Positions 4,385 to 51,299 of a DNA stretch of 64,000 nucleotides are shown here, piece after piece; positions within the stretch are counted from its first letter, which is position 1, and each line of letters starts with the position of its first letter. The stretch is from an uncultured Nitrososphaerota archaeon. GTDB lineage: Archaea; Thermoproteota; EX4484-205; JAAOZP01. The translations under genes and the position numbers were made by a program. The stretch covers positions 25,217-89,216 of the forward strand of contig CAYQCW010000007.1 of the NCBI GenBank assembly GCA_964416155.1, written 5' to 3'. The notes beneath the pieces were generated by a model. The model saw only the letters and a list, made by a program, of their open reading frames with translations, was not told the origin of the DNA and made no database searches.

Positions 4385-5467
4385 ATGGTTGAGACTCTTG
4401 AGATAGACGGCTCAATGGGCGAGGGCGGGGGCCAGGTTTTAAGAACCGCGGTGGCTCTTTCAGCTCTTCTAAGAAGGCCCGTCAGGGTTTTCAACATTAG
4501 GGCCAGGCGGTCCAATCCCGGTTTGAGGCCGCAGCACTTCGCCGCTGTGAAAGCTGTCGCCCGCTTAACCGGGGCGAGAGTTGAGGGTCTAGAGGTCGGC
4601 TCCAGGGAGATAGTTTTCACGCCGGGCGGGGCTGAGGTTGCTGAGGCTACGCTCGACGTTGGAACAGCCGGCAGTGTTCCACTGGTTCTCCAGGCTCTAA
4701 TGCCTGTTTTAGCTTTTTCAAGCCGTGGGGCAAGCCTGATTCTCAAGGGGGGGACTAACAATCCTAGGGCGCCTCAGATAGACTATGTTAAGGAGGTTCT
4801 CGCCAAGGTTCTCGCTGAAATGGGCTACCATGTGGATATTGTTGTTGAGCGGAGGGGTTTCTACCCTAGAGGCGGAGGCGTCGTAAGGTTCAGGTCTAGG
4901 CCGGTTGAAGTCCTCAGGCCTTTCAACCTAACTGAGTTCCCCGGGCTGCGGAGCATCCGGGTCCTGGTTTACAGCGCTAGGCTCCCAAGGCATGTGGCTG
5001 ACAGGATTGCCAGTTCAGCCTCGCTCGAGCTGGCTAGGAGGCTCGGGATCCAGCCGAGCGTTGAGGTGGAGTATATGACTGGCGGGGAGAGCGATGCTCC
5101 TCTCGACCCTGGCTGCGGCATCATGATTCTGGGGACGCTTGAAAACAATGTTGTTTTCGCCTCCAGCAGCCTTGGAGAAAAAGGTAAGCCTTCTGAAAGG
5201 GTTGGGCTTGCGGCGGCTTCAGACTTCATCAAGCAGGTTGAAACCGGGGCTCCGGCTGACAAGAATCTCGCTGACCAGCTTGTGGTTTACGCCGCGCTAG
5301 CCAAGGGGTTTTCGAAGCTTAAGACCAGTGAGATTACGCTCCATACTTTGACGACAATAAGGCTTGTCGAGCTCTTTCTCCCCGTGAGGTTCCAGCTTGA
5401 GGGGGGTGCCAGGGCTCCCGGAGGGTATGCTGTCGAGGGCGTGGGCTTCAAGCGTCCGGCAGCCTAA
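4385..5467 (+). CDS. rtcA: RNA 3'-terminal phosphate cyclase
   Basis: 360 aa. N-terminal IDGSMGEGGGQVLRTAVALSAL and overall RtcA architecture. Confidence 0.9.
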   Translation: MVETLEIDGSMGEGGGQVLRTAVALSALLRRPVRVFNIRARRSNPGLRPQHFAAVKAVARLTGARVEGLEVGSREIVFTPGGAEVAEATLDVGTAGSVPLVLQALMPVLAFSSRGASLILKGGTNNPRAPQIDYVKEVLAKVLAEMGYHVDIVVERRGFYPRGGGVVRFRSRPVEVLRPFNLTEFPGLRSIRVLVYSARLPRHVADRIASSASLELARRLGIQPSVEVEYMTGGESDAPLDPGCGIMILGTLENNVVFASSSLGEKGKPSERVGLAAASDFIKQVETGAPADKNLADQLVVYAALAKGFSKLKTSEITLHTLTTIRLVELFLPVRFQLEGGARAPGGYAVEGVGFKRPAA

Positions 5468-5478
5468 GGTTTATCAAT

Positions 5479-6033
5479 ATGGTTACGCCGGATTGCCGTA
5501 TGATGAGTGAGCCATACCCGCTTTACGTGGGTCGTTTCCAACCTGTGCACAATGGCCATGTCCACGCCATAAGGCATGTCGTCTCAAACAATGGTGGGAT
5601 TATTATCGCGGTGGGCAGCTCTCTGACGAGCCACGATAAGGATAACCCGTTCACATTCGGCGAGAGGCTTCAAATGCTCCACCTGGCTCTGGCTGAGGCG
5701 GGAATAGGGCTTGAGAAAACCGTCATAACCGGGGTTCCCGATATTCCTTACGCGCACTTCCTCTGGGTGCGTCTCGTGGAAGCCATGTGCCCGCCTTTCA
5801 AACTCGTCTACACTAACCAGCCTTTCACTGGGAGGCTTTTCAAGGAGGCTGGCTACGAGGTTAAGCCAATACCCTTTCTAGAGAGGGAGAGGTACTCGGG
5901 CGCGGAGATAAGGAGGAGGATCATTCTGGGTGTTGACTGGAGCCAGCTTGTCCCAGCCAGTGTCTACAAGTATCTGGCGAGCATCGGCGGGGCTGAGAGA
6001 ATAAGGGATCTAGCCTCCTCGGATGAGGTTTAA
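5479..6033 (+). CDS. nadM: Nicotinamide-nucleotide adenylyltransferase (archaeal NMNAT)
   Basis: YVGRFQPVHNGH nucleotidyltransferase (HxGH) motif, ~180 aa. Confidence 0.85.
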   Translation: MVTPDCRMMSEPYPLYVGRFQPVHNGHVHAIRHVVSNNGGIIIAVGSSLTSHDKDNPFTFGERLQMLHLALAEAGIGLEKTVITGVPDIPYAHFLWVRLVEAMCPPFKLVYTNQPFTGRLFKEAGYEVKPIPFLERERYSGAEIRRRIILGVDWSQLVPASVYKYLASIGGAERIRDLASSDEV

Positions 6034-6077
6034 AAACGGGAGTGTTTATAAACATCCTTTTCGAGAGGGTTTGAAGC

Positions 6078-6806
6078 ATGGAGCCCGGTTCACTGGTGCT
6101 CGTCGACTACACTCTCTCCGTGAAGGAGACTGGCAGCGTGATAGAGACCACTATAGAAGAGGAGGCTAAGAAAGCGTCTATACACAGGGAGGGTGAGAAG
6201 TACTCTCCCCGGCTGATATACCTGGGTGGAAAATGGGTTTTGGAAAGCTGGGAGGAGGAGCTTCTCAAGAGCGAGATCGGCGTCGAGAGGACTGTTGAAA
6301 TACCTCCTGAAAAAGCCTATGGCTTCAGGGATCTGAGCAAGGTTAAGACGTATGCCGCCAGAAGGTTCTCCAAGCCCCAGGAGCTTGCCCCCGGGGCTCT
6401 GGTTGAAATGGATAACAGGATCGGCGTTGTGAGAACTGTTAGCGGCGGCAGGGTTCAGGTTGACTTCAACCCGCCTCTTGCGGGCAGAACCCTAGTCTAC
6501 AGGTTTAAAATACTTAGGGTTCTCGAGGATGATGCTGAGAAGATTAAGCATCTCGTGAACAGGCGTCTCCCCGAGGTTACGGTCGACGAGGTTGCTGTGG
6601 AGCTTGACGGAGCCAGAGCTGCGATAAGACTCCCCCAGAGGGTTCTCCTTTCAGAGGGGATTCAATACGTTAAGAAGGCTGTTTCAGAAGACGTTTTAAC
6701 CATTGTTAAGAACTTTAAGACCGTTGAGTTCATAGATGTTTTCACGCAGCCCGAGGCCGCGGCAACCGGGGAGGCTCAGCCTACTCCTCAACAATCTCAG
6801 CCTTAA
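6078..6806 (+). CDS. FKBP-type peptidyl-prolyl cis-trans isomerase (long archaeal type)
   Basis: N-terminal FKBP fold motifs (LVLVDYTLSVKETGSVIETT...) with inserted flap and C-terminal extension. Confidence 0.8.
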   Translation: MEPGSLVLVDYTLSVKETGSVIETTIEEEAKKASIHREGEKYSPRLIYLGGKWVLESWEEELLKSEIGVERTVEIPPEKAYGFRDLSKVKTYAARRFSKPQELAPGALVEMDNRIGVVRTVSGGRVQVDFNPPLAGRTLVYRFKILRVLEDDAEKIKHLVNRRLPEVTVDEVAVELDGARAAIRLPQRVLLSEGIQYVKKAVSEDVLTIVKNFKTVEFIDVFTQPEAAATGEAQPTPQQSQP

Positions 6807-7218
6807 TCAGGATTAGCTTCTTCACAGGGCAGTCGAACGCTCCAAGCTTCTCAAGAATCCTGATTCTCCGGTTTGAAACAAGCATGTTGAAGACCACGGG
6901 GCATTCAAGGACCCTGCTGCACCCGGCGCGGCAGAAGCTGTTTTCAAGAATCGTGACAGCACCCTCCTTCACCCTGTCTTGTGCGAGAAGGGTCAGCGGT
7001 TCCATGCTGATTTCAAACGGCGCGGCCTCGCCGCCTCTCAACGGGCAGTAAACCTTCTCGCCACCCGTCTTCCTAACAATCCTGTACGAGAAGCCTGTGG
7101 TTAGCGAGCCGTGGCACCTCTCCCTGGCGCCGCACGATTCACACTCGCATGCTTCACCCATGTAGGTGAAGACTAGGCCCTTTTTCGCAGAAGGGTCCAG
7201 GTAGCTGTACTTGCCCAA
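6781..7218 (-). CDS. Cys-rich conserved hypothetical protein
   Basis: 145 aa with CECESCGARERCHG and further Cys pairs. Confidence 0.35.
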   Translation of the reverse strand: MGKYSYLDPSAKKGLVFTYMGEACECESCGARERCHGSLTTGFSYRIVRKTGGEKVYCPLRGGEAAPFEISMEPLTLLAQDRVKEGAVTILENSFCRAGCSRVLECPVVFNMLVSNRRIRILEKLGAFDCPVKKLILIKAEIVEE

Positions 7219-7231
7219 GGCTGGACACCGG

Positions 7232-8302
7232 CTATATCACCATCGTGCTTCTGGCAAGCTCCTCCGCAGCCTTCCTCGTCAAACCCTTATCTCCAAGTAT
7301 AGTGTATCTTTCAGGCCTTATGGTGTGGGCGAGGATCAGGGCTTTAACAACCTGTTTCTCAGAAACGTTTATCACCCTAGCTGAAACGGGTGCGCCGACT
7401 TTCGAAAGCGCGCTCCTTATTCTCAACCAGTCGCCGTCGTGAAGCTTGCTCATCATTATTGTCCCTATTCCAACCTGCTCCCCGTGGAGAGCAGGATAGC
7501 CTGCAACATGGTCGAGCGCGTGGCTGAAAAGATGCTCGGAGCCGCTGCACGGCCTGCTGCTTCCAGCTATGCCTATGAGCACCCCGGCGTGTATCAACGC
7601 TTCCACGAGTATGCTGGCCCCCTCAAGCCTGTCCCCCGCGATGGTTTCAGCACACTTAACTATTCTCTCCGCGATTGTTTCAGCTAGGCTCGCTGCATAC
7701 TCGCCGTAGTATTCTCCGCGAAGCGTGTGGGAGAGACGCCAGTCTTTCACAGCCGTATGCTTCGCCACCAGGTCTCCAACCCCGGCGCCGAAATACCTCG
7801 AGGGAGCTGTTGCGAGAATCGAAACATCCCCTATTATTACTGAGGGCGTTATCGTGTTGAACGAGTATCTTCTTCCCCGCCTGGGCGCTGAGGCCAGGGG
7901 GCTTGCAATCCCGTCGTGAGAAGGCACCGTGGGGACGCTTATGAACTCCAGGCTGTTCCTCCAGGCTAGAATCTTGCCCGCGTCAATAACCCTGCCTCCT
8001 CCGAAGCCGACGACAACGCTTTCACCCGGCTTCCTGTCAATCTTGGCGAGATGCTTCTCAAGCTTCAAGGACTCTGTGAAAGCATCCGCCTCGCCTATGA
8101 GGCTGAGCCTGAAGGAGAGCCTGCTCTCCAAGAGGATTCTCCTAATCTTCTCCCCGAAGAGCCTCATAGGCGTCTTGCTGGTTAAAACAACGACCCTTTT
8201 AGCCCCCAGCTCCCTTATGCTTGAGCCCAGCTCCTCAACAGCATCCCTTCCGAGTATTATGTGTCTCGGCAGCCTAACTGTATGCCTACTCTTGTCTTTC
8301 AA
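7232..8302 (-). CDS. egsA: Glycerol-1-phosphate dehydrogenase [NAD(P)+]
   Basis: 356 aa. GFGGGRVIDAGK Rossmann motif and PTVPSHDGIASP metal-binding region typical of archaeal G1PDH. Confidence 0.9.
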   Translation of the reverse strand: MKDKSRHTVRLPRHIILGRDAVEELGSSIRELGAKRVVVLTSKTPMRLFGEKIRRILLESRLSFRLSLIGEADAFTESLKLEKHLAKIDRKPGESVVVGFGGGRVIDAGKILAWRNSLEFISVPTVPSHDGIASPLASAPRRGRRYSFNTITPSVIIGDVSILATAPSRYFGAGVGDLVAKHTAVKDWRLSHTLRGEYYGEYAASLAETIAERIVKCAETIAGDRLEGASILVEALIHAGVLIGIAGSSRPCSGSEHLFSHALDHVAGYPALHGEQVGIGTIMMSKLHDGDWLRIRSALSKVGAPVSARVINVSEKQVVKALILAHTIRPERYTILGDKGLTRKAAEELARSTMVI

Positions 8303-8373
8303 GGTGTTGAGACGAATAGGGGAAAGATTTATCTTTAAGCCTTTCCCTACTTGGGACGGTTCGGGTTCTAGAG

Positions 8374-9045
8374 GTGTTTAGAAGGTTGGCAAGCATTAAT
8401 ATGAGAACAGGCAGAACGGGGATAGTCGACCCTCTCTGGGGCACTACTACGGTTGGAATATCCTGCACGGACGGCGTTGTCCTGGCTTCAGACACTAGGG
8501 TTGTTCAAGGATACTATTTTATCGCTCATAAACGCGGAAAGAAGATTCTGAAGATAGATGACTATATTGCTGCAACTATTTCCGGCGGAGTTGCCGACGC
8601 GCAGGCCCTCATAAGCTCGCTGCAGTGGGAGGCGAGGTCGTACAAGCTTGAGAGAGGGGTCAACATGCCTGTTAAGGCGGCTGCGAACATTGCTTCAATA
8701 ATCCTCTCGTCGACGCGCATTGCACCCCTCTACATTCAGCTGATAATAGGCGGCTACGATAGAGAGGGGACCAGCCTATATGTGCTGGACCCGCTCGGAG
8801 GCTTTTCGAAAGAGGTTTTCGTAGGATCAGGGTCAGGCTCCCCTGTTGCACTAGGATACCTTGAGGCTGAGCTCAAGCCCCCGGTTAGCGTTGAGAACGC
8901 TATACCAATCGCGATTAAATCTATTCTCGCAGCAATGCAGAGGGACACTGCCACCGGCAACGATTTTGAAGTCATGGTTGTCGACTCGAAAGGGTGCAGG
9001 GAGCTATCGCCCGAGGAGAAGACAAGGTTGACCGGTTTAAGATGA
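8374..9045 (+). CDS. psmB: Proteasome beta subunit (paralog 2, canonical)
   Basis: Propeptide then G|TTTVGI catalytic Thr1, SGGVADAQ, GSGS motifs. Confidence 0.85.
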   Translation: MFRRLASINMRTGRTGIVDPLWGTTTVGISCTDGVVLASDTRVVQGYYFIAHKRGKKILKIDDYIAATISGGVADAQALISSLQWEARSYKLERGVNMPVKAAANIASIILSSTRIAPLYIQLIIGGYDREGTSLYVLDPLGGFSKEVFVGSGSGSPVALGYLEAELKPPVSVENAIPIAIKSILAAMQRDTATGNDFEVMVVDSKGCRELSPEEKTRLTGLR

Positions 9046-13477: not shown

Positions 13478-13930
13478 CTATGTTCCCCTAATCTTCTCAA
13501 TCTTCTCAATAATCTTGCTCGAGCTAGTGTCGAAAAACTTCCTCATTTTAACAGTCTTGATTTCAAGCCCAAGCCTTTTCAAAACCCTTTGAGTCCTTCT
13601 CATAATGTTTGTCTGATCGTAGCCGAAAACAATAACATCCGGCTTAAGCCTCTTCAGAAACCACTCAATATTCTTCTCAATATCACCTCTTCTCCCAATG
13701 TAAACCCCGTCAACAGGCTTAAGCTTGGAAACCATGAAAGCCCGGTCCCTAGCCCTGAACATTGGGCTCCTACCCTTATTGTCCTTAACCACGCTGTCGC
13801 ATGCAACAATAACGAGAAGCCTGCCGTCCTCACCCGCCAGACGCTTAGCCTCCTCCAGAAACCTTATGTGACCCGGGTGAATAATGTCGAAAACACCCGT
13901 GGTAAGCACAACAACGCTCCTCCTTCTCAT
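13478..13930 (-). CDS. ribL: FAD synthase (archaeal RibL, cytidylyltransferase-like)
   Basis: TGVFDIIHPGHIRFLEEAK (H/TxGH) nucleotidyltransferase motif, 150 aa. Convergent with ribK. Confidence 0.8.
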   Translation of the reverse strand: MRRRSVVVLTTGVFDIIHPGHIRFLEEAKRLAGEDGRLLVIVACDSVVKDNKGRSPMFRARDRAFMVSKLKPVDGVYIGRRGDIEKNIEWFLKRLKPDVIVFGYDQTNIMRRTQRVLKRLGLEIKTVKMRKFFDTSSSKIIEKIEKIRGT

Positions 13931-14089
13931 GACGAGGCCTCCGCCCTAAGGGTGGGCAGCATGGTTAAAAATTTTTAAAACCCCTGCTTAAAGAATAGTG
14001 CCTACAGAGCCGGTTTGGCACGCGCTAACAGATGAACAAAGAATGATGCAAAAGTTTCCTCCCGCCCCATACAACGCTTAAATACTTGA

Positions 14090-14106
14090 AGGAAATATTT
14101 TTATAC
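14090..14106 (+). promoter_or_regulatory. TATA-like box upstream of tRNA-Lys(CUU)
   Basis: AAATATTTTTATACC about 25 bp upstream of the tRNA 5' end. Confidence 0.4.
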
Positions 14107-14129
14107 CCTGTTGTAGCGGAAACTCCTGT

Positions 14130-14257
14130 GGGCCCGTAGCTCAGACGAGAAAAGTTTAAATATGTCTTGAAGCGTGTGCCACGCGCGGCTCGGAGCAGCA
14201 TGGTAGAGCAGCAGGCTCTTAACCTGAGGGTCGAGGGTTCAAATCCCTCCGGGCCCG
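14130..14257 (+). tRNA. tRNA-Lys (anticodon CUU) with a ~53-nt non-canonical intron in the D-arm region
   Basis: Hand fold: acceptor GGGCCCG/CGGGCCC, D-arm GCTC..AGCATGGTAGAGC, anticodon loop CTCTTAA, T-arm GAGGGTTCAAATCCCTC. The 128-nt span means ~53 nt of insert after the 5' GCTCAG. 27-43 is a G.A mismatch, so the anticodon-stem register is tentative. Confidence 0.6.
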
Positions 14258-14463
14258 CATTGCAAAATTAAAACGTTAAACAAAGCGCGCATATTTCACA
14301 CGCTCGCTGAAAGCTTAAGCACATGCCGTTGTGATAAATAGTGTAAGGATAAAAATGGAGGGAAAACACGCTTGTCTCTAGCATGCTTGGGTAGAGGGCA
14401 TGCTCATCCTGTGGTTATTTTTTTTCTTCGCAGCCTCAACAAGCTTCTGGATGGTTTCGAGCG

Positions 14464-15096
14464 ATGGTGACTTGTCCTTTAACACTTTTCTCAGGTTTTC
14501 ATGTAATTCTTTCGGGTCTGACTGCGCGAGTTTCTCGAATCATGATGATTTTACGTCTAGCGCACGCTATGGGGTTCGTTTCCTTCGCGATGCCCGCCAG
14601 GGAGCTCTTTGAGGACAATGTTCTGGGCGACCTCTTGCCCAGCACCCTGATGAGTCTGAAATACTTTTCTAAGAAGACTAAAACGGATTTCGAGCTGCTA
14701 ATCTATGGCATTGGCCATAGGCTTAAGTACAGGGGAATAAATAGCTATAGCAATCTCTCATGGTTCCTAGAGGCCAAACACGGATGCTATTTTAAGGATG
14801 GCTGGTCGTACGACCTTAGAGATCCTGAAATCAGGTTTGAAGAATGTGATTGCGAGGTCTGCAAAGGGTTAATGCCCCAGGAAATTATTGACCTGATGTT
14901 CAGCGACAAGGAGCTCGGTCAAGACGCTTATCCTCCACAACCTGCTCGACATGAAGGGGGCTTTATCGAGGAGGAAATAGATGGGTGGAGGTTCGAGGGT
15001 AAAGCAGTACCAGAGAAGGTTCTTCGAGGGGGAGCAGGGAAGGGAAGAAAAGGAGGAAGAAGCCTTCCATGTTGTAAGGACCTTCGGAGAGTATGA
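14464..15096 (+). CDS. Hypothetical protein with CxCxxC-x30-H zinc motif (TGT-like zinc site), in AT-rich island
   Basis: ECDCEVCKGL ... PARH. Low-complexity C-terminus overlaps another frame. Likely decayed. Confidence 0.3.
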   Translation: MVTCPLTLFSGFHVILSGLTARVSRIMMILRLAHAMGFVSFAMPARELFEDNVLGDLLPSTLMSLKYFSKKTKTDFELLIYGIGHRLKYRGINSYSNLSWFLEAKHGCYFKDGWSYDLRDPEIRFEECDCEVCKGLMPQEIIDLMFSDKELGQDAYPPQPARHEGGFIEEEIDGWRFEGKAVPEKVLRGGAGKGRKGGRSLPCCKDLRRV

Positions 15097-15214
15097 GATC
15101 CGCGGGGCGGAGAGTGTGGATATGAGCTTCTTAAAGGAGGCGAAGTTATTGGAATCTTTTCTCAAGCCAAGGTTGAAGAAGACAGAGTTGCCTTCAAGCT
15201 GAGTCACGGGATGA

Positions 15215-15919
15215 ACTTGGAGGTATCTGGAAAAAGGAGTTAGAGAAATACTTACTCCAGCAAAAGCAGAGTTATGCGGCTTAATAGCTGCAGACGGTAC
15301 TATTTGTAAATATCGAGGAGAGAAAGGACAAGGCGGCGGGTACGAGGTCTCTAACAAGTGTAAACCACGAACTCGAGGTTTTCAAGGAATTATTCGGAGA
15401 TACTTATAAGTATGACTTTCCACGAACATATTAAACATCATAAAACGAACGAAGGAAGGAGAAAAGGAGCATTATCATGTAGCAACGTATAATAGGAAAG
15501 TAGCCTATGATCTATGGAGCTTCATTAAGGGACCAGACCCCTATGAATTCCACCCGCCTATACAGTACCTTGACGATGAAGGCAAGAGGGCTTATCTAAT
15601 GGGTTTCTTTTCCGGAGACGGTAATGTCTCTATGACTAAAGAAGGCGGGCATGCCATCCGAATCTATTCGTCTTATAAGGAAGGGCTAAAGGAATTAAAA
15701 GAAATGTTTGAAGATTTAGGATTCCATCCGAGCGAAATTCATGAGCAACATGAGAAGCCCACTCTTGGACGACATAGGAAAGAATATAACTACTATTTCA
15801 GTATTCCAGAAGAAGATCACCTGAGGTTCATGGAGGTAGGATCAGAAAAGTTGGGGCATAAAAGAAAGTTTGAACTAATAAAGCTAATAAATGGAAGAAA
15901 GAAAAAGGAGGAGGATTAG
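15215..15919 (+). pseudogene. Double-motif LAGLIDADG homing endonuclease, single frame interrupted by in-frame stop codons
   Basis: Motif 1 ELCGLIAADGTI (15269-15304) and motif 2 YLMGFFSGDGNV (about 15590-15625) lie in the same frame. TGA at 15200 and 15212, TAA at 15407, TGA at 15413 interrupt it. Region is AT-rich relative to flanks. Confidence 0.65.
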
Positions 15920-15924
15920 TTAGA

Positions 15925-16522
15925 ATGACACCTATGGCCGCTACTCTTTGGGTGTGGGGTGATGATTTTGACCATGTTAGGAAGAATTGTGAAAAGTATG
16001 TGAGCAAAAAGTGGAAAGAGAACATAAAGGAATGCAGTATAGAGATCTCCGCCAGAAGGAGGGACGAGGGTATTTGTTACTATATTGTTGTCTATACAAG
16101 TAACCTCCAAAGCATTGGAGACTTGGCCGAAGGCTTATTCGATTCTTTCGAGTGAAGAAGTATATCGAAAATCTATGGAAGAAGTGGAAAAAGAGCTTAG
16201 GGAACGAGAGGGAGGCATCGTTGAAAAATTTAGCGAAGAGCCGGGGGTGAAGTCTGTGGTGCAAGGGCGAAAGATCGTGTTTATTCCTCAAACCAGTCTT
16301 CTCTGCGAATTGAGCTCGAAAATCGCGAATAAGACAGTGATAGAGGTGGTGCATGAGGATTTCTCACCTATGAAGGATTTATTACATTCTTTAAGCAACA
16401 GGATGATTGAAAGAGGATTAGCGGAACAAATTTTGGGCTATGATTGGTGGAAAGGCGTTAACGACCTTAAGATTGGAGACATGGACATACGGGAAGACAA
16501 GGTTCTAGTATGGCTCATCTAA
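15925..16522 (+). other. Two overlapping-frame hypothetical ORF fragments abutting the tRNA-Leu 3' end (possible element remnant)
   Basis: ORFs 15925..16155 and 16085..16522 sit in different frames with no recognisable domains. The second ends 1 bp before tRNA-Leu. Confidence 0.25.
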
Positions 16523-16523
16523 G

Positions 16524-16621
16524 TGCGGGGGGTGGGATTTGAACCCACGAACCCCTTCGGGAAGAGGTCTCTCCCCGAGGTCTTGAGCCTCCCGCCTTTG
16601 GCCTGGCTTGGCGACCCCCGC
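16524..16621 (-). tRNA. tRNA-Leu (anticodon CAA) with 13-nt canonical intron
   Basis: Acceptor GCGGGGG/CCCCCGC, anticodon loop CTCAAG[13-nt intron]A, long variable arm TCCCGAAGGGGTTC, T-arm GTGGGTTCAAATCCCAC; 98 nt total. Confidence 0.8.
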
Positions 16622-16672: not shown

Positions 16673-16957
16673 ATGAGGCTGAGTGAAGTTTTCGCCAGCA
16701 GGGTTCAGGCGAGGGTTTTAGAGGAGCTTTTAAACGCTCCTCACACTATTTTCACGCAGGTTGAGCTTGCTAGGAGGGCTGGCTGCTCCTCCTCCAGCGT
16801 TGACAGGGCTCTTAAGAACCTTATGAGGCTCGGCTTAATCAGGATTGAGAGGCTTTCAGCCAATAAGATTGTTGCGTTAAATCTTAATAGCAGGGTTGTG
16901 TCCCTCCTCATTCAGTTTAACAGGGATGTGAAGAAGGCTGATAGAGATACTGCTTAG
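16673..16957 (+). CDS. Winged-helix transcriptional regulator (small)
   Basis: MRLSEVFASRVQARVLEELLN...ELARRAGCSSSSVDRALKNLMRLGLI HTH. The upstream part of the listed ORF is antisense to tRNA-Leu and was discounted. Confidence 0.5.
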   Translation: MRLSEVFASRVQARVLEELLNAPHTIFTQVELARRAGCSSSSVDRALKNLMRLGLIRIERLSANKIVALNLNSRVVSLLIQFNRDVKKADRDTA

Positions 16958-16979
16958 AGAGAGGATAAGCGGCAGGGGG

Positions 16980-17594
16980 TTGACGTTTCTCGGCTTAGAG
17001 GGCTCCAGCGGAATGGGTGTTATTCAGGCGGGGAACCTTGTTAGGCTCTTCAACATGAGGCCGCTTGGAGAGATCGTTTTCTACGGTTTCCCCGACAACC
17101 TGATCGTGGACTCCATGGGTGTTGGAAAGATTCCCACTGTGGACGTTTACCATGCTAAAACTGGGGATTTCAACATAAGTGTTTTCACGACGATGGTTAG
17201 GCAACAGTATATCGACTCTCTCGGCAACAGGGAGCGCAACATGTTTTTCTCATCGCTTCTCTACGCTATGAAACTAGTTGGGTCCAGTTTCCTATTAACC
17301 ATTGACTGTGTGAATGTTTCAAGCAAGAATAGGAAGGTGTATCTAATTGTTAATTCTTCAAAGCTTGCCGAGAGGTTTAAAGACAGGGATGACTGTGTTC
17401 TTGTAAAGGGGAGACGTTTAAGAAGCTCGCTGACGCTTGCAGTCGCTATGGCAAGTTTTCAAAAGATCCCTGCCCTGCAGATAGTGCTTCCAATCAGAGA
17501 GCTTACTGAGAGCAGGGTTCAGCATGGTTTTCAAAGCCTGGTTAGCGTTATTAACGATGTGCTGGTCTTCGTAGCAGAGTCTGGGAGAAGTTAA
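16980..17594 (+). CDS. Hypothetical protein (possibly PAC2-like)
   Basis: 204 aa. IVFYGFPDNLIVDSMGVGKI vaguely resembles PAC2-family GFPGIG. Weak. Confidence 0.25.
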   Translation: MTFLGLEGSSGMGVIQAGNLVRLFNMRPLGEIVFYGFPDNLIVDSMGVGKIPTVDVYHAKTGDFNISVFTTMVRQQYIDSLGNRERNMFFSSLLYAMKLVGSSFLLTIDCVNVSSKNRKVYLIVNSSKLAERFKDRDDCVLVKGRRLRSSLTLAVAMASFQKIPALQIVLPIRELTESRVQHGFQSLVSVINDVLVFVAESGRS

Positions 17595-17601
17595 ACCATT
17601 C

Positions 17602-18933
17602 CTACGGATAGTGCCAAGGACTTATGAAGCCATAGGTTTCTCCCAGCCTGTTCTTCTCAAGACCATATCTTTTCAACGGCTTGGTTAAGTGTCTATGGGA
17701 TCTTTCGGGCGGTAGATACGGGTGGTTCACCGTTAAACCCCGTTCCATTACGATTGTCTGAGGCTCCTCAACAGTCTCGCCGCATTCCTCGCAGGCGAAG
17801 CCCTGCCGTAGACCAAGGCTCTTACATTTTCTCCCGCATTTCGGACATGCCGGCGGTGTTCTCCTGATTTTCCTGCACAGTTTTAAAACCTCCATTTTCT
17901 CAGCGTTAACAACCAGTTTTCCCAAATGCTCTTTAACCCCGCCGTAAACCCTTATTTTGTCACCGGGCTCAAGCATGGATGCTGCTTTCTTCAAGCCTCC
18001 TGTAGGAGAGTAGAATGCGCATGAAATCCTTCCTCCGTCTTCAATAGTCACTATAACGTGCCCGCCTCGAATAATCTTCTTGTCGACTACGCTGCCCTCA
18101 ACCCGTGTTGAATCATATTTCTTAACTTGGCTGATTGCAACAGACTCTTCTAGAAAATGCGCGTCAGTACCCTGGTTGGCTTTGAAAATACACCAGCCTT
18201 CAATCTCCTCCTCAGTCTTAACAAGCCTGAACGCGTTGTAGACTGCTTCAGGCGTCTCCCCCCTTATTCCGAAGAGCACCGGATCCCTGCCGTGAGGAGT
18301 TATCAGGATGCGTTTCGTCTCCGGGTCAATATTGTTAAAAGTGTTTTTCGAAGCAAGCTCATCCATGAGGATAACGCTGTCCCGGTCTATTCTACGGGGC
18401 TTCCCATAGTTCTCACTTACCCTGTATGCGAGAAGCTCGAAAGTATAGTCGTCGAAGACAGCTCCAACCGCCGCAAGCGCTCCTACGACTCCAACCTTAG
18501 AAGTCTTCAGGAACCTGTAGGACGCCCCTGTCTCCTCAGCAATCTTCAACGCCTCAACCGGGGAGACCATGCTTCTCAACACCTTCAGGTAGAACTGGTG
18601 GAGCACATCTCCCTTCTGCGGGAGCCTGTTGCTGAAGACGATCGCGGGCTCTGACCTAGGGCTGTTTAAATCCGAAAGCTTTTCCACGATGCTTATGACG
18701 GATCCCGCAACCTCATCGTAAACCTGCTGGCTCTCAACCCTTATCCTTATGCTTACCGCCCCGTTACCCCTTGTCTTCCAAGGAATATTAGGGTTAAGCC
18801 TTACGAGAAGAGGATAGTCTATAAACTGGATGCTCCTCATGCCGTCTAGCTGGGTCACTATTCTCGCAGCAACATGCGTAGTACAGCCGAACACTTCCGA
18901 GTCCGTGTCGTCTATACCTATGTTAAGCAGCAT
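17602..18933 (-). CDS. tiaS: tRNA(Ile2) 2-agmatinylcytidine synthetase
   Basis: N-terminal MLLNIGIDDTDS...GCTTHVAA kinase-like motif characteristic of TiaS; C-terminal CPKCG...CEECG zinc ribbon; 443 aa. Confidence 0.8.
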   Translation of the reverse strand: MLLNIGIDDTDSEVFGCTTHVAARIVTQLDGMRSIQFIDYPLLVRLNPNIPWKTRGNGAVSIRIRVESQQVYDEVAGSVISIVEKLSDLNSPRSEPAIVFSNRLPQKGDVLHQFYLKVLRSMVSPVEALKIAEETGASYRFLKTSKVGVVGALAAVGAVFDDYTFELLAYRVSENYGKPRRIDRDSVILMDELASKNTFNNIDPETKRILITPHGRDPVLFGIRGETPEAVYNAFRLVKTEEEIEGWCIFKANQGTDAHFLEESVAISQVKKYDSTRVEGSVVDKKIIRGGHVIVTIEDGGRISCAFYSPTGGLKKAASMLEPGDKIRVYGGVKEHLGKLVVNAEKMEVLKLCRKIRRTPPACPKCGRKCKSLGLRQGFACEECGETVEEPQTIVMERGLTVNHPYLPPERSHRHLTKPLKRYGLEKNRLGETYGFISPWHYP

Positions 18934-19043
18934 TTCGGCTCAACGCTGAACAAACCTTAAACAGGAACCCCGGCTTTTAAGCATAGCCTTAAATACTCGA
19001 CTGATAAGCTAAGAGGCTGTTTTTCAGGAACAATCTTCCAGAA

Positions 19044-19137
19044 AGCCTCGGGAGGGATTCGAACCCTCGACATGCAGCATCCGCCCAGCCTTTTCCGCTT
19101 ACGAGGCTGCCACTCTACCAGGCTGAGTTACCGAGGC
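19044..19137 (-). tRNA. tRNA-Thr (anticodon CGU) with 20-nt canonical intron
   Basis: Acceptor GCCTCGG/CCGAGGC, D-arm ACTCAGCCTGGTAGAGT, anticodon loop CTCGTA[intron]A with 3' stem GCTGC, T-arm GAGGGTTCGAATCCCTC. Confidence 0.8.
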
Positions 19138-19193
19138 TCGCCAGCATTCTTCGGAAAAGGGGCTTAAAACGTTTTCGCTTCTTAAAAACCAGG

Positions 19194-26808: not shown

Positions 26809-27097
26809 GGTTGAAAGAAGGCATATCCTAACGGTTGAGGAGTATTACTGGTTCCAGTTTCACTTTTAGCGTCAAGCAATCCTTAAGCGTATTCGGCTAT
26901 GTGAAAGCCGTTATAATGTGCGTTATTAACTAGGATATAATGATATAATAAGCATGTTTAATGAGGGCGTTAGAAAATCCTCTACCAATAGCCCTTATCT
27001 GGACGTTTAGTAGCAAAATTAGTTATTAATGAGCTATTAGCACGCTATCAAATATCTTATTGATCTGCTATATGGTGAATATTGATGTAAGGCTGTC

Positions 27098-27523
27098 GTG
27101 CAAACCCTGATTTGGTTAGGAGGCTCGGTGAAAAACAGCCGGGCGCAATCTATGACGAGGCTAGGATTCCACGGGTTCTCTGCCAGACCCGCTTGTTTCC
27201 TCAGACGGGTTGAGGAAGATGACGAGGTTGATGAGAAACGCGTTGTCATCGTTGGCCATTCGAGGCTTGGAAAGACAGCCCTGTGGAGGAGGAGAATTCG
27301 TGGAGAATTCTTGGCAACGAAGGCCGCGGACCCGGTTTACAGGCTGCTGGGTACGGATGGGCTGCCGGTGGAGGAGATGCCTCCTTTAAACCATCATGTA
27401 ATGGGGACAATGGGTCATCATGTTCGCTCGGGTGGACACGCTTTAACCCTATACGATTGGGAGAGGTACATGGATTTCGCGGATAAAGCGAAAAACGGAA
27501 CCCCTTCCTGTTTACATCGCTAA
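27098..27523 (+). pseudogene. Fragment of an alpha/beta-hydrolase-like gene in AT-rich region
   Basis: 141-aa ORF with VVIVGHSRLGKTAL and HHVMGTMGHH blocks but no complete fold; surrounded by AT-rich noncoding DNA. Confidence 0.3.
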
Positions 27524-27781
27524 CACGAACGCGCTAACGCGTTATCCGTAGACATAGTCCAACAAGCTCTCGAGATGGGAAAATGCAGGATAGTGGAAAT
27601 GCCGGTCAAATTAGTTTCCATTACTACTAAAATTCTAGTCGTGAAAAACATACCTCTACGAATTACTTATCTTTTATTTAACCTAGTGCACGTAAACCGG
27701 AAACCCTGAGCCCTAGTCGGCAATTCCCTGCAAGTAAAAAGTTATTAAATCCCTGCAAGCAGGTTTTCAACAAGCCCGGGA

Positions 27782-27912
27782 AGCCCGGTGGAGCCAACTA
27801 GGGTGCCGATTGTAATGGCAAAGCATCGCGCTAAGACATGGGGGGCTTTGGTGCAATTTCGCGCTTGCGGAGAAACCCCTTGATGAGAGTTCGAATCTCT
27901 CCCGGGCTACCA
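27782..27912 (+). tRNA. tRNA-Gln (anticodon UUG) with two introns (D-region ~30 nt and canonical ~23 nt); CCA encoded
   Basis: Acceptor AGCCCGG/CCGGGCU with A73-CCA. Anticodon arm GGGGG CTTTGG[intron]A CCCCT. T-arm GAGAGTTCGAATCTCTC. 131 nt total, so ~53 nt are intronic. Exact D-arm intron boundaries not resolved by eye. Confidence 0.7.
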
Positions 27913-28086
27913 TTGTACCCTAGTCAGGTCTACGTTCAAACTCTCGGTTTCTCATGTTCATAATTGTATTACTTGGCGAACTCGCTGATAATTGACCATA
28001 TCTGTGCACATAAGCAATTTGCTCTTTCGTACTCTCCGATAAGTTTTTAAGAGTGTCAGCCTCTGAATGCTTACATAGGAATCCGC

Positions 28087-38737: not shown

Positions 38738-39108
38738 GGGGGCTAGGCCCGATGGAAACGTATTTATGATGCCTCTCACAATCTTTTCCTGGGCGGCAGG
38801 TAGGCTCGGGGAGCTCGCCATTCCCTGAACCCGAAACTGGCGACACGCGGGGAGCCGATAACCGTGGGGACAGGGCTGCCTCAACGCAACCGGCTGCAAC
38901 AGGTCTGTGAAAGCCATCCTTACTGGGCAGGAGTAGCAGGCTCGCCTGCCGTAGGGTGGGCGCGTCTGCCTAATTACCGAATCCGCTAGGCCCGGGAGGG
39001 AGCAACGGTCTGGTAAGCTACCTGCGTTGGTAAGGGATGGCTGGAGGGTAAACCTGTTGCGTGTGGGTTGTGATGGAGGGGCTCGACCCTCATGGGGCTG
39101 CCGCCTCT
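38738..39108 (+). ncRNA. Signal recognition particle RNA (7S/SRP RNA)
   Basis: GC-rich ~370-nt noncoding stretch with the helix-8 (domain IV) signature AGGCCCGGGAGGGAGCAACGG, comparable to conserved AGGUCCGGAAGGAAGCAGCC, and Alu-domain-like GGCGGCAGGTAGGCTCGGGG. A T-rich tract follows. End coordinates approximate. Confidence 0.65.
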
Positions 39109-39203
39109 AAAAAATCATTTTTTAACCATTGGAAACGACGTTTAAAGAGGAAGCGTGGATTTTTGACTAAACATCCTTCTGAGAAAAGATAAGTATTTCT
39201 CAT

Positions 39204-41264
39204 ATGATAAAAGTTCTATCAAAGGAACGGTTTCTGAGATGCGACGAGAAAGGGCGGCCGGTGGTTCCAGGCTTTGTGACATACGTCTCAAGGAACAAAC
39301 AGATTCTTCTTCACCGTTTCGGGAGAGAGGATTACTCAGATACTTATGATGATTATATGGACATGTTCAGCTATGATAATGACAGAACATGGACGCAGCC
39401 GGTTCTGCACCTGAAAAGTGTGGATGTCAAGGGGGCAAAATCCGTTACGGCGAGCAAGCAGCTCTTTTCGACTCAGAAACAGAGAAAATTATAGTGGTTA
39501 TTAACAAGTCTTTCTACCCTAACGATACGCTTGACACGGACCTTCCCTACTCCCTAGTCCAAGAAATGTACGACCCGGCAGCAAACACATGGTCCGACTT
39601 AACCCGTTTGGATTTAGATTTTCCTGGCGAAATTGCTGTGAGCTTCTGCAATCCAATAAAAAATATCGAGGGGGCGATTAGTATTCCCCGCGCAGGGCAC
39701 ATACCTTGATGAAAAAGGGCAGCCTGTCCACTATAAGGGTTGCTGGTCGCCAGCAGGCATCATCGTTCATCTCTTAGGAGACTATGGGAAAGACGAGACG
39801 ATTAGGTGGAAACTGAGTAAACCGGTTATCCCTGATTTAGAGAAGACTTCTCGCGGTTTCTACGAACCGGCTGTCGCGGAACTAAAGGACGGGCGTTTCG
39901 CTATGGTTTTGCAGGAGGACAACAGCATGTTTCCCGAGCGCCCAAGGTATAAGTGGATAAGTTTTTCGGATGACCATTGCGAGACCTAGACCGAGCCGGT
40001 GCCCTTACCCTGCGATGGGAACAAGCCCATTGAATCCAGTTCCACTGGCTCTATGCTTTTTCGCTCCATTAAAAACGGCCGGCTCTATTGGATTGGAAAC
40101 TTGTGTATTGAAGGTGCATGGATCTTTGGCGTGTATTGCGAGAAGACTCTGCGTCCTTACGGCAATTTTCCGAGGACACCTCTGGTCATAGCAGAGGTTC
40201 AAGAAAATCCTTTTTCCTTGAAACGCAACACCATAACCGTGATTGACAGGCAGCAGCCTTATGAGCCTCCACAGGTGCAGCTCTCCAACTTTAGGTTTTA
40301 CCAAGACCGTGAGAACAGTGATATCGTCCTTTTCCTAACCCGTTGCAGTGAACGCGCCGCCGAAGCCTGGAAGCTGGCGGATTATTACCGGTATCGGATT
40401 GCCATTTGAAATGGAGGAGACATGTAAATGACACGAAATTGTATCTAAGTAGGCTCCCGCAAACAGGTTTTCCTAGACGAGCGCTTCATAGTGTAGTCGA
40501 AGGGGATAAGGGCGAAAGTTAACCCGCCCTTGGAGCGGCATGAAGTATTGCGGGGAGACCGTCCCTAGGACAGGGGCTGGATCGGCTGGTTGACCGTGTT
40601 AGAGGACGGAGGAGTCTACAAGATGTGGTATATAGCTGCTCCCGAGAGCACTGGAGAAGAAATAGATGGCGGAAAGGCCCTTAGACTCTGCTACGCGGTC
40701 TCCGAGGATGGAGTTAATTGGAGGAAGCCTGAACTCGGGCTCGTGGAGTATGAAGGAAGCAGGAGAAACAACATAGTGCGCATAGAAGGATTCCCAGGCG
40801 GAAGCCCGGAGGGCTCAGTGTTCCTAGACCCGAAGGCTCCTCCTGAACAAAGGTATAAGATGCTTGGTACGCTTTCCCCAGTGTCTACCGCCACTTTCCC
40901 GAGCCTCCGCTGGGCCCTTGTGTGAACGATGGCCTGCTGGAGATTCAGTTGGCCGTGAGCCGTGACGGTGTCCGGTTTCAGCGGCCCGACCGCACCCCCT
41001 ATATTCCGCTTGACGTGAAAGGTACGTGGCACGCCGGCCAGATGTACATGGGGGGTAGGCATGATCAGGAGGGGAAACAGACTTTTCCAATATTATAATG
41101 CTTCAGACATCAGCCATAGTGGATACCGGTGCCCCAAGCCCTTGCCCATTGTGGACATAAGCCGCGTCTTTGTGGCGGTGCAGCTTCTCGACCGTTTCGC
41201 AGGTATCCAGGCCCCGGATGAGGGTTGGCTGCTCACCCCGCCTCTGCGCTTTTCAGGGAACTAG
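39204..41264 (+). pseudogene. BNR/Asp-box beta-propeller glycosidase-like gene, decayed by frameshifts and in-frame stops
   Basis: Asp-box motifs SYDNDRTWTQP and SEDGVNWRKP. Coding signal hops between frames (39204..39494 frame 0, 39389..39709 frame 2, then frame 0 with stops near 39986, 40407, 40923). Confidence 0.6.
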
Positions 41265-41824
41265 TTAGAGTTAAACATAGACTGTGGCGCCACAGGTGAA
41301 GCACTGGTTGAAATAGATGATGAGAATGGGGTTCCGATTCAGGGCTTTAGTCTAGACGAGAGCGACCGGGTGTGGGGAAATCACCTGAGGAAGAAGGCGT
41401 CGTGGAGAAATGGGAAGACAGAGCAGATTTCCCAGATTTCCCCCTTCTGTCAAGACGGGTGCGAACCTGAAGAGATAGTTCAAGGAGCCGATCTTTATAT
41501 CTAAAATATACGTGTTTTTGGATTGTGTAAGATTAAATATCTAACCTTACCCTTACCTTGTGTAATTCTTTAGCGCGCGCTACTCGCTTTCCTAAGCCTA
41601 GAGGATTGGCTTAAGCCTGAGGAGGTTGGGAGGCTAGCTGGGAAGCTGGGCGTTGATCCTAAGATCCTGTTCCTGAGTTTTTCAGACGCTTTGGCCGACG
41701 AGATCGCAAGGAGGTTTTGAGATGAGCGATAAGCCTATTTGGAGCGCGCACGCGCTTCCTGCTCTTCGTCGAGAGAGTTAACCGGCTTAATGATGGAGGA
41801 ACATTAATTTATTAGAACGCCCTG

Positions 41825-41912
41825 GCCGGGATATTCGGTTTTTAACTTTCGAACCCGGGTCGGGAGGGTGACAGCCTCCAATGCTAACCTTTACACCACC
41901 AGGGCTCGGGTG
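41825..41912 (-). tRNA. tRNA-Asp (anticodon GUC) with a 16-nt non-canonical intron in the T-loop
   Basis: Acceptor GCCCTGG/CCAGGGC. Anticodon arm GGAGG CTGTCAC CCTCC. T-arm CCGGG TTCGAAA[GTTAAAAACCGAATAT]CCCGG. 88 nt. Not flagged by any ORF. Confidence 0.6.
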
Positions 41913-42106
41913 TAGGAGTTTTTGAGGGCAAATAAATCTTTTGCTACAGTTACGCTTGAGCCTTATTTGTCAGATAGTAGTGATGAACCCTGAGCCAGGG
42001 AAGTACATAAGTAGAGTTTCTTACCCATACTGGAACAAGTGCAGGGTCTTAATTTCGAGGAGAAGAGCATTTCATAGATTTCTACTGTGAACGCAAAATT
42101 CTGATA

Positions 42107-42265
42107 ATGGAGCTGGCAGTTGAGAAAATAAACGAATTGATTAAAAACACTGGATACCAATATTACAAAATAGACTTATTTCTCATTGCTTCGAGTATGC
42201 AATATTATATCGTGTTCATACCCACTGAAGTTGAGAAGCTTGAAAAGGAAAGAAGTTGGAAGCTT
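42107..42265 (+). CDS. Small ORF 'Y' (52 aa), paralog of 52269..52454
   Basis: MELAVEKINELIKNTGYQYYKI... versus ...VNRINELIKDAGYQYYRL at the second locus. Confidence 0.3.
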
Positions 42266-42384
42266 TAATTGATGATCTAGTTGACAAAATAAGGTGCTAT
42301 TCCTCACCTTACCTGTAATTTGAATTAGGCTCTATTTCTTTATAGAGCTTAATCCCAGTGCAGGTATAACCGGATTCTGTTTGC

Positions 42385-42570
42385 TCAATCCGAATTTGTA
42401 CCACTACTACGATACCATACTTCACATTCCAGCCTATTAAAATAATCTTCCACTTGCCTTATCTCATTACCTATACGACCAGTAATATCTCGAAACACCG
42501 TTCCCTTTATTTCAACTATCGCCATCAATTTATCTTCAGAGTAAACTTGGATGGCTGGTCCTTGTTTCAT
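42385..42570 (-). CDS. Small ORF 'X' C-terminal module with hhAIhEIKxT motif, paralog of 52451..52783
   Basis: YSEDKLMAIVEIKGT...VEDYF versus YHKSELVAIIEIKTT...LKDYF. Upstream minus-strand coding remnants are also homologous between the loci. Confidence 0.35.
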   Translation of the reverse strand: MKQGPAIQVYSEDKLMAIVEIKGTVFRDITGRIGNEIRQVEDYFNRLECEVWYRSSGTNSD

Positions 42571-42952
42571 GCATCCGCTGGTTTTTAAGCCCCTCCTTCG
42601 GAAGCCCAGTCAGCCTGGATATTTCTTCCTTAATATTATCAATATTTAAGAATACTTATTCTTCATCAACCTTCTCAATTAACTCTTTAATTTCTTCCTC
42701 CTCCTTTAACATTTCCATGTTAAGCTTATCCACAATCTCCTGAGCCAGCCTTTTAACGATAGTCCCTGAATCCTCGAGGTATATTCTATGGGCAAGAGGC
42801 CCTTATTTTTATCGTGCGCTACATATTTGCTTAACGCTTTCCACATCCCCTTTAAAGGTTAGAGTAAACACTTAGGAGAAAGTTGTGAAAGTGATTATTG
42901 GGCACAATAACGAAGGGCCCCGATTTTTCGCGTTCCTCCTATTCAACTCCTT

Positions 42953-47614: not shown

Positions 47615-47940
47615 CACACTGCCTATGGAGAAGCGTGAATAATTGGGTGGAAGTATAATCTGGCGGGAGAGGGGGAGGATGATGATTTCTAACCCCGTTT
47701 AACCCGTATCAAGATGAAACAATCCACGAGCACTGGGTTTGCAACCCATACTGGGGTGCTCCACATATTTTTCAGGTAAGGGTCACGGGAAGAATTAGGC
47801 GGGGCTAAAAGTAAGCTGTTTGTTAAATACTTTTCTTAAGAGGCGTCTTTCAACCTGCATTCGTCTTACTGGAAGAAGGCGTATAATTTAGGTAGAAGCG
47901 GGTCGTGTGGTTTAAACCTAGGGAGAAAAATATTAGGGGA

Positions 47941-48072
47941 TGGGGCCAGGGCGATTTGAACGCCCATTCACGGGTTTCCTCCCAGCTCCAACCTTTCCTC
48001 ATCTCCCTCGCCGGGATCCTTGGCTTGCATGCGGCTGGAGCCCGCCGTCCTGCCTGGTTAGACTATGGCCCC
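47941..48072 (-). tRNA. tRNA-Trp (anticodon CCA) with 59-nt canonical intron
   Basis: Acceptor GGGGCCA/TGGCCCC. Anticodon arm GCGGG CTCCAG[59 nt]A CCCGT. T-arm GGGCGTTCAAATCGCCC. 132 nt. Confidence 0.8.
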
Positions 48073-48290
48073 GGTTTCCCCGTGTGTTTTCCTTACGGCG
48101 GATTTTTAAGGTTTTTCATGTTGCTGGTTTTTTAGGGTTATTTTACCGGGTGTATGAGGGATAAGGTTGTGGTTTTCTTAGGCTGTTTACCGCCGTTTTT
48201 CATGATTGTTTAAATCTGGTTAGGCTTAAGCGGGGCTGGGGGTGGGGAAGGTTTTATTAAGGAGTTACGCTGTTTAATCTTCGATGAGAA

Positions 48291-48533
48291 ATGGCTCACG
48301 CGTATGTTTTGATGAATGTTGAGATAGGGACTGAGAACGATGTTCTCAACAGGCTTAAGGATACTCCTGGGGTTGTGGAGTCCTGGATTGTTTTCGGCGT
48401 TTACGATATTATTACTAAGGTTGAGGCTGAGAACAGTGAGAAGCTTAAGGAGGTCGTAAGCAAGTATATTAGGAAGATTGAGGGCGTTAGGAATACTCTC
48501 ACGCTGATGCCTATTGAAGGCTTCGCCAAGTAA
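48291..48533 (+). CDS. Small ferredoxin-fold (RAM/ACT-like) protein
   Basis: 80 aa, VLMNVEIGTE...VFGVYDIITKVEA pattern similar to stand-alone RAM domains. Confidence 0.4.
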   Translation: MAHAYVLMNVEIGTENDVLNRLKDTPGVVESWIVFGVYDIITKVEAENSEKLKEVVSKYIRKIEGVRNTLTLMPIEGFAK

Positions 48534-48576
48534 AGTTTAAGCCTGGCTCGACGAAGAGTATCGTGAACTGTTAGCG

Positions 48577-48930: not shown

Positions 48931-48977
48931 GGAAAGGCATATTTGCTTCCCCCATGTTTTCTTAAGGGTCTTTAAAA

Positions 48978-51162: not shown

Positions 51163-51299
51163 AACCCTTCAAGAAAACTAAATAGTTAAACAAGGATGTA
51201 AAGGAAAGCAGGTGTTAGTTTTCAGCTAGCAAACCTTTCACGTGCTAAGCGGAATCATAACCTCGATAGGTTTACCTCGCAATGTTTAATACAGCTAAG

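Follow-up and report, generated by a model that had tools for sequence, protein, structure and literature searches.

In fungal mitochondria (Allomyces, Glomus), mobile open reading frames (mORFs) are free-standing genes for LAGLIDADG or GIY-YIG endonucleases that bring with them a replacement 3′ end of atp6, atp9, cox2 or nad3, while the original 3′ end persists downstream; biochemical work has shown that the endonuclease drives their mobility (PMC3630166). Islands at tRNA genes (tDNA islands) and archaeal integrative elements, of the Islander type or with pNOB8- and SSV-type integrases, insert at tRNA 3′ ends, regenerate the tRNA, leave a distal partial repeat and accrete in tandem (PMC8371274, PMC4383910). 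The locus described here lies in a stretch of 64,000 nucleotides, referred to as the window, from an uncultured Nitrososphaerota archaeon (assembly GCA_964416155.1, contig CAYQCW010000007.1, positions 25,217 to 89,216, forward strand). At window positions 14569-16522 it consists, with a probability of roughly 0.8, of a dead, 5′-truncated copy of a ~2.8-kb mobile element that targets tRNA-Leu(CAA), all three of its genes, termed A, B and C, being disrupted. The A-B-C family is apparently undescribed and looks like a junction of two known themes, homing-endonuclease mobile ORFs and tRNA-gene islands. An insertion element disrupting tRNA-Thr in Caldiarchaeum encodes a recombinase and is different from A-B-C.

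The truncated copy and its target are arranged as follows, A being related in fold to tRNA-guanine transglycosylase (TGT):

14569-14980, plus strand: 3′ remnant of gene A (TGT-fold zinc protein), about the last 135 of ~338-365 codons, identified by tblastn and blastn homology.
14981-15921, plus strand: pseudogene of B (I-DmoI-like double-motif LAGLIDADG protein with an N-terminal extension of ~94 amino acids), identified by Pfam LAGLIDADG_3 (PF14528), E=4.1e-13.
15925-16522, plus strand: pseudogene of C (219-amino-acid orphan α/β protein), identified by tblastn to C.
16523-16621, minus strand: tRNA-Leu(CAA), called by ARAGORN and Rfam (42.7 bits), the integration target, whose 3′ end abuts the right end of the element.

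The blastn homology of the window to all relatives starts sharply at 14569, near codon 200 of A. Roughly the first 200 codons of A are absent, and the CxCxxC...HN zinc motif is kept, with a 2-nt deletion at ~14918 parting the CxCxxC motif from its HNL partner. In C, a 62-nt deletion at ~16140 results in two ORFs, 15925-16155 and 16085-16522. The stop codon of C abuts tRNA-Leu, the last ORF ending 1 nt before it. Altogether, ~1.1 kb of the left end is lost, comprising the far end and two thirds of A. An earlier reading of the bare sequence (the original prediction) had already recognized the upstream ORF as TGT-like, which profile and structure matches bear out, and had correctly placed the end of the last ORF 1 bp from tRNA-Leu.

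The damage in B differs from its first appearance. The read-through frame 14981-15921 contains both LAGLIDADG motifs and exactly four stops, at 15200, 15212, 15407 and 15413, just as originally predicted, and its translation matches LAGLIDADG_3 over two stretches at the E-value listed above. The prediction went on to state that the gene contains nonsense codons only and no frameshift, and this part fails. Alignment of the window DNA with five intact relatives maps the following changes in B:

~15115: loss of 1 nt
~15225: gain of 1 nt
~15347: loss of 2 nt, CT lost from a CT run
~15374: loss of 3 nt
~15408: gain of 1 nt
~15444: gain of 4 nt, an AACG duplication
~15523: loss of 3 nt
~15831: loss of 3 nt

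The five frameshifting indels total +3, and the reading frame is therefore restored; zero net frame after five indels is expected by chance about once in three. All four stops are confined to the out-of-frame stretches 15115-15225 and 15347-15444. Translated stretch by stretch in its true frame, B yields 310 amino acids with zero internal stops and 80% identity to the intact homologue P0001. Since the stops fall only in frameshifted stretches and the true-frame protein is uninterrupted, B was inactivated by indels, not by nonsense mutations, and the pattern of in-frame stops only is an illusion created by mutually cancelling indels. Both catalytic acidic residues are retained in this copy.

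If the endonuclease gene were instead free-standing and intact in framing, with nonsense codons as its only lesions, either very recent inactivation or stop-codon suppression or recoding would follow. The readability of one frame across 14981-15921 with just four stops speaks for this, and the 80% identity of frame-corrected B to P0001 means that decay is not ancient. The reading is nevertheless extremely improbable: comparison with five intact relatives places five frameshifting indels in the gene, the sequence between these makes no sense in the ‘open’ frame and gives conserved protein in others, and the neighbours A and C are likewise truncated or deleted. Programmed recoding would leave conserved protein in one frame across the stops, and between the indels it is other frames that encode it; nor is B an intact ORF in the window, with five frameshifting indels and four resulting stops. 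Suppression, recoding and TGA enrichment, all raised in the prediction, were dropped, because the five compensating frameshifts explain the stops and leave no basis for them.

Sequencing or assembly errors in an element that is intact in the organism would also produce such lesions. The source is probably metagenome-assembled, multicopy elements are prone to misassembly and several indels measure 1-2 nt. This explanation is very improbable, since the damage extends to the 4-nt tandem duplication, the 62-nt deletion, three deletions of 3 nt and a missing left end; the flanking host genes RFK, FAD synthetase and TiaS are undamaged, and about one third of the copies in other assemblies are similarly decayed. 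Taken by itself, the locus in the window is an ordinary cluster of decayed pseudogenes, and its value lies in exposing tiny, multicopy Brockarchaeota elements aimed at specific tRNA genes.

The family was delineated by scanning one genome per species, which yielded 46 loci; the comparison sequences are mostly contigs of metagenome-assembled genomes (MAGs), and copy numbers and intactness are accordingly approximate. All 46 loci lie in MAGs labelled Brockarchaeota, Thermoproteota, Nitrososphaerota or Thaumarchaeota, so that among the genomes scanned the element was found only in Brockarchaeota-type archaea, read here as hot-spring Brockarchaeota. Copies per genome number ~10 in MAG GD2_1, to which the window genome shows ~90% DNA identity, 8 in CALIBN, 6 in CAZWPT and 5 in JAFNIX. 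The complete element measures ~2.8 kb and consists of three co-oriented, tightly packed genes whose stop and start codons abut or overlap, encoding proteins of 338-365 (A), 304-317 (B, ~312) and 219 (C) amino acids. The order A-B-C is seen in L001-L005 and in ~40 of the 46 genome loci, and about one third of the copies are split or truncated. Mean G+C content (GC) is 0.434 for the elements and 0.475 for their flanks. The elements hold only A, B and C, with no recombinase by Pfam, NCBIfam or PADLOC. No gene family in the 6-kb flanks recurs in more than 7 of 47 loci, and the flanking ORFs that do cluster are only host genes of orthologous loci. A virus-borne origin was rejected, as no relative of A occurs in IMG/VR viral contigs; B has a single match in the same contigs, weak and partial, at 30% identity across 88 residues, A and C have no PHROG matches and C has no viral fold match.

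One arrangement departs from the common one: in L013, L014, L016, L020 and L028 (~5090-8010), C is inverted upstream of A-B and the 5′ end of tRNA-Gly(TCC) lies 45-70 nt downstream of B; in this lineage a 16-18-nt piece of the 3′ end of B is repeated beyond C. L026 contains two elements (5979-8624 and 13525-14928) 7.5 kb apart.

The original prediction had described a stand-alone LAGLIDADG gene, unusual for archaea. Its position outside any intron or intein holds, as the gene lies outside a contiguous tRNA-Leu, on which it converges, and no Hint or intein domains are present. The gene is not alone, being the middle member of a conserved three-gene cassette.

Orthologous sites are found in both occupied and empty states. 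In L008, tRNA-Leu(CAA) and the right flank of the window recur with 85% identity and the element is intact, its distal partial tRNA-Leu copy abutting a host methyltransferase gene. The site is empty in L024 (73% identity), where host sequence follows the 3′ end of tRNA-Leu(CAA) directly. The tRNA-Leu 3′ sequence is identical between occupied and empty sites. A second target in the window shows the reverse situation:

19043-19138, minus strand: tRNA-Thr(CGT), an unoccupied target site whose orthologues are occupied in two related genomes.

This tRNA-Thr is empty in the window, and an element of another A-B-C lineage sits at the orthologous tRNA-Thr in L033 (GD2_1) and L036. Window positions 16742-19031 align with L033 4195-1906 at 90% identity, where the element abuts, and 19178-19040 align with L036 5698-5834 at 89% identity, where the element begins at the tRNA 3′ end. 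The comparison of 19043-19138 drew on L033 1780-2000 and on L036 5680-6000 and 8500-8600. The orthologous tRNA-Thr of L036 has the anticodon TGT, not CGT. These comparisons support the proposal that the LAGLIDADG gene in the window is inactivated and belongs to a mobile element linked to the 3′ end of a tRNA.

They also bear on whether A-B-C is a domesticated, vertically inherited host operon acting on tRNAs in modification or repair, placed near tRNAs for regulation, with the window copy as a pseudogenised paralogue. A does have the fold of a tRNA-modifying enzyme, and the three genes keep many invariant residues across 40-95% identity. Against a host operon stand the presence/absence polymorphism at orthologous tRNA sites, the target-site duplications that flank copies, the older tandem remnants that adjoin them, the 5-10 divergent copies per genome, the GC below that of the flanks and the frequent decay, all of which make it very improbable.

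Of 49 loci, at least 33 have a tRNA gene at an end of the element. In the usual layout, 1-60 nt separate the stop codon of C from the 3′ end of a tRNA gene that runs towards it, the tRNAs being Leu, Met or Ala isoacceptors. Other lineages have the 3′ end of a Glu, Thr or Lys-like tRNA directly against the upstream side of A. Sequence clusters of B track the type of target tRNA. Flanking direct repeats of 24-61 nt corresponding to the tRNA 3′ end are found in 13 loci (L001, L003-5, L007-9, L015, L025, L030-32 and L043), and among close relatives the repeat length ranges from 33 to more than 60 nt. The target tRNA remains intact because the element end carries the tRNA 3′ segment. In many copies the far end is marked by a partial, displaced tRNA 3′ copy; in relatives this copy consists of part of the tRNA-Leu 3′ end. 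Beyond the distal copy comes a conserved sequence upstream of A, GAAGCTTTTAAATTCGAA, a putative promoter. The full architecture, an element-borne replacement segment together with the displaced native segment, is seen in L001, L003, L007-9 and L043. A tRNA repeat at both ends is thus present in relatives and absent in the window, where the left end is deleted; a repeat search of the window found none, in line with the prediction, in which no att repeat of either tRNA had been seen by eye.

In several loci, a remnant of an older C gene end lies outside the distal repeat, which indicates that each new copy enters beside the tRNA and displaces its predecessors away from it. It seems common for one tRNA site to be invaded more than once (L026, L001, L015). 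A degenerate older C-gene remnant outside the distal repeat is visible at L001 4700-4840, and another, at L015 2340-2440, adjoins the orthologous tRNA-Leu(CAA).

To the left of the element, the window is organized as follows:

14130-14257, plus strand: tRNA-Lys(CUU), Rfam 41.5 bits over 14186-14257, the left neighbour, outside the element.
14259-14568, no strand: 310-nt filler between tRNA-Lys and the truncated element, GC 0.429.

Both flanking tRNAs, tRNA-Lys(CUU) on the plus and tRNA-Leu(CAA) on the minus strand, are as predicted (Rfam; ARAGORN), and the idea of a tRNA-bounded island survives at one side only: the mobile element sits at the 3′ end of tRNA-Leu, and tRNA-Lys is neither its boundary nor its att partner. 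Six metagenome relatives share the synteny of the left flank from 5.5 kb as far as tRNA-Lys, and it breaks exactly at the tRNA-Lys 3′ end. After tRNA-Lys, none of the six contains A, B or C, and the closest one continues with host genes. A role of tRNA-Lys as second att site was rejected, given the lack of a repeat and the unrelated host genes beyond it in the six relatives. tRNA-Lys is a synteny breakpoint and tRNA-Leu(CAA), on the sequence comparisons, the sole target of the window element; the junction arose by deletion or rearrangement, with the right breakpoint inside gene A. Synteny breaks at the elements, and rearrangements at tRNA genes, such as the one at this junction, may therefore be driven by them. 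The filler may be debris of the rearrangement that joined the two blocks; its interpretation as a remnant of a Lys-targeting element was rejected for want of a blastn or tblastx match to any related locus. GC is 0.437 in the interval, falling to 0.39-0.40 at 15.4-16.2 kb, and 0.481 over the whole window, so the AT-rich island of the prediction exists; the difference is moderate, not marked.

The core of protein B (residues 95-291) has I-DmoI as the best sequence match in the PDB (profile E=2e-6). In an alignment of 36 sequences, the acidic position of motif 1 is Asp in ~94% and Glu in the rest and aligns with I-DmoI D21. In motif 2, the corresponding residue, D214, never varies in this alignment and is matched to E117 of I-DmoI. 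Like I-DmoI and the other LAGLIDADG enzymes of archaeal rRNA introns, B has a monomeric double-motif core with both catalytic acids aligned; unlike them, it is encoded outside introns and inteins, carries a conserved 94-amino-acid N-terminal domain, for which no Pfam family matches, and is always partnered with A and C. From this conservation, B is probably active in intact copies.

The AlphaFold model of A (predicted local distance difference test, pLDDT, 87) has as top Foldseek matches archaeosine TGT (ArcTGT) 1iq8 (E=5e-12, template-modelling score 0.68) and bacterial TGTs, and a sequence search with the family profile likewise hits 1iq8 (E=1.5e-6). As in the TGT superfamily (ArcTGT, bacterial TGT, DpdA), A contains a TIM barrel and a zinc subdomain with CxCxxC...H ligands, C294, C296, C299 and H325, all invariant, and the base-binding Asp is conserved (D130 in ArcTGT, D147 in A). 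It differs from that superfamily in lacking PUA or C-terminal tRNA-binding domains, in an extra Cys-rich N-terminus and in the invariant Ser that the profile alignment places at both catalytic Asp positions. The canonical catalytic Asp pair is D95/D249 in ArcTGT and D102/D280 in the Z. mobilis enzyme. Other invariant Asp residues nearby in A are D120, D124, D141 and D153. Every member of A tested falls below the Pfam TGT cutoff (12.8-23.4 versus 26.3 bits), and the score against NCBIfam tgt_general is 12 bits, the threshold being 47.6. Long forms of A possess the Cys-rich N-terminal extension (WCGxxxCxxCxYFxxxLCxGC...), often omitted by gene callers. This extension uses GTG or TTG starts, and its spacing is C-x3-C-x2-C or C-x4-C-x2-C (L003 4905-4985; L008 1414-1620; alignment columns 1-60).

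Protein C is modelled with a pLDDT of 93 as two predicted α/β domains. An exhaustive search of its profile against 1.84 billion proteins returned 71 clusters only, all of them the C family itself.

In its architecture, the element resembles the fungal mORFs: an endonuclease gene is located at the 3′ end of an essential gene, an element-borne replacement segment keeps the target functional, and the displaced native 3′ segment stays beyond the element as a decaying duplicate. The differences are equally clear. The target of A-B-C is a chromosomal tRNA gene of an archaeon, the element comprises three genes, among them those for a TGT-fold protein and an orphan, these genes converge on the tRNA and are not fused to it in frame, the replacement is often identical to the native segment, and there are many lineages, each at a different tRNA, with 5-10 copies per genome. 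The relation is one of architectural analogy, not of whole-element homology. With the tDNA islands and archaeal integrative elements, A-B-C shares insertion at the tRNA 3′ end, regeneration of the tRNA, the distal partial repeat and tandem accretion; it differs in having no integrase inside or recurring in the flanks, a length of only ~2.8 kb, a variable duplication and a LAGLIDADG nuclease instead. The elements show the hallmark of integrase islands, in that a displaced 3′ copy accompanies the regenerated tRNA, together with a homing endonuclease and a TGT-fold protein that is always present, and they lack an integrase.

Endonuclease-initiated, homology-directed spread is, from these sequence features, the most likely mechanism, at about even odds. 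The element would spread without an integrase. B would cut unoccupied tRNA genes, and the break would be repaired from an occupied copy or a circular form via short tRNA homology. Repair would copy in the element together with its replacement tRNA 3′ end. A and C would serve as accessory factors, perhaps recognising or protecting the tRNA gene or the tRNA; a role of A in recognition or protection of the tRNA gene is a suggestion only.

The chief competing explanation holds that the cassette is cargo, for example a restriction-modification-like pair of TGT-like base exchanger and LAGLIDADG nuclease, lying between att sites and moved in trans by the integrase of another element with the same tRNA sites, in the manner of a cis-mobilisable or satellite element. 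Direct repeats of the tRNA 3′ end and tandem accretion are indeed the classic signature of integrase-mediated tDNA integration, and the pairing of a TGT fold with a nuclease loosely recalls the 7-deazaguanine (Dpd) systems, with a weak PADLOC TGT match (E=0.039). However, no integrase-like gene recurs in the 6-kb flanks of 47 loci, and a fixed att core would not usually give duplications whose length differs between close relatives, here by values of 33 to more than 60 nt. The tracking of target tRNAs by the B clusters is expected when the element encodes its own specificity, neither canonical TGT catalytic Asp appears conserved in A, and DpdB- or DpdC-like partners are absent. Movement as cargo is thus doubtful, though it deserves more weight than the alternatives treated above.

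A broader proposal is that A-B-C represents an autonomous, integrase-less class of archaeal mobile element, in which B would break a specific tRNA gene, a catalytically re-purposed TGT-fold A would recognise the tRNA gene or the tRNA or protect the regenerated site, and C would complete a new insertion machinery. This we advance tentatively, as a possibility rather than an expectation. A might, within such a class, possibly bind or base-exchange in the tRNA gene, or use the tRNA to find its gene.

Several observations weigh against the account of a self-moving, tRNA-targeted element and its copy in the window. Because the left end is missing in the window, the assignment of that copy to the family draws on homology and the right junction alone. 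The filler at 14259-14568 shows no similarity to ~60 related loci by sensitive blastn and tblastx. With the same tRNA-Leu 3′ sequence at occupied and empty sites, the immunity of an occupied site to re-cutting is left unexplained. A tRNA duplication is not obvious in the Thr-targeting lineage, and certain lineages either are flanked by repeats unrelated to tRNA or have no tRNA that could be detected. In the profile alignment of A with 1iq8, which is of moderate confidence, conserved Ser residues (S115, S262) occupy the positions of the ArcTGT catalytic D95 and D249. Finally, the 25-nt terminal overlap of L052 fits a circle or an assembly collapsed at flanking repeats alike. L052 itself is a 2851-nt Logan contig (SRR8369793) that consists of a single element, with both ends in the same 25-nt tRNA T-arm sequence.

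A full-text literature search returned nothing that links LAGLIDADG with Brockarchaeota or with tRNA-guanine transglycosylase or transglycosylase-like partners. If the endonuclease-driven mechanism is correct, homing with a replacement 3′ end, a strategy of fungal mitochondria, would also operate on archaeal chromosomes and at tRNA genes. The B family would then supply naturally occurring LAGLIDADG enzymes that differ in the conserved tRNA genes they recognise, and in A the fold of tRNA-guanine transglycosylase would be put to a new, non-canonical use.

Not all of the direct repeats that flank elements resemble tRNAs. A 33-37-nt ATTATTATGATTAnAAAnAGTTATG motif is repeated in L034 (301-337 and 2964-3000) and L037 (5944-5976 and 8597-8629), and L049 is listed in the same group. 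In L041, an exact 135-nt direct repeat is found at 5774-5908 and 8577-8711. The lineages with such repeats may have targets other than tRNA genes.

The left-hand tRNA-Lys of the window is itself split by an intron. Its 5′ end, GGGCCCG, is located at 14130, and ARAGORN misses the unspliced gene because an intron in the D-arm separates this end from the remainder; tRNA-Lys(ctt) is called only once the intron (~50-58 nt, ~56) is removed by exon joining. The intron contains the TATA-like TTTAAATA, and its 3′ part is able to pair with the D-stem exon.

Elsewhere in the window, the stretches 26809-28050, 38743-42952, 47615-48965 and 51163-54634 contain no stop-to-stop ORF of at least 150 codons. They are free of tandem repeats, and Rfam gave nothing in them besides signal recognition particle (SRP) RNA and tRNAs. 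The stretch 38743-42952 comes after the SRP RNA gene, and 51163-54634 contains two tRNA genes.

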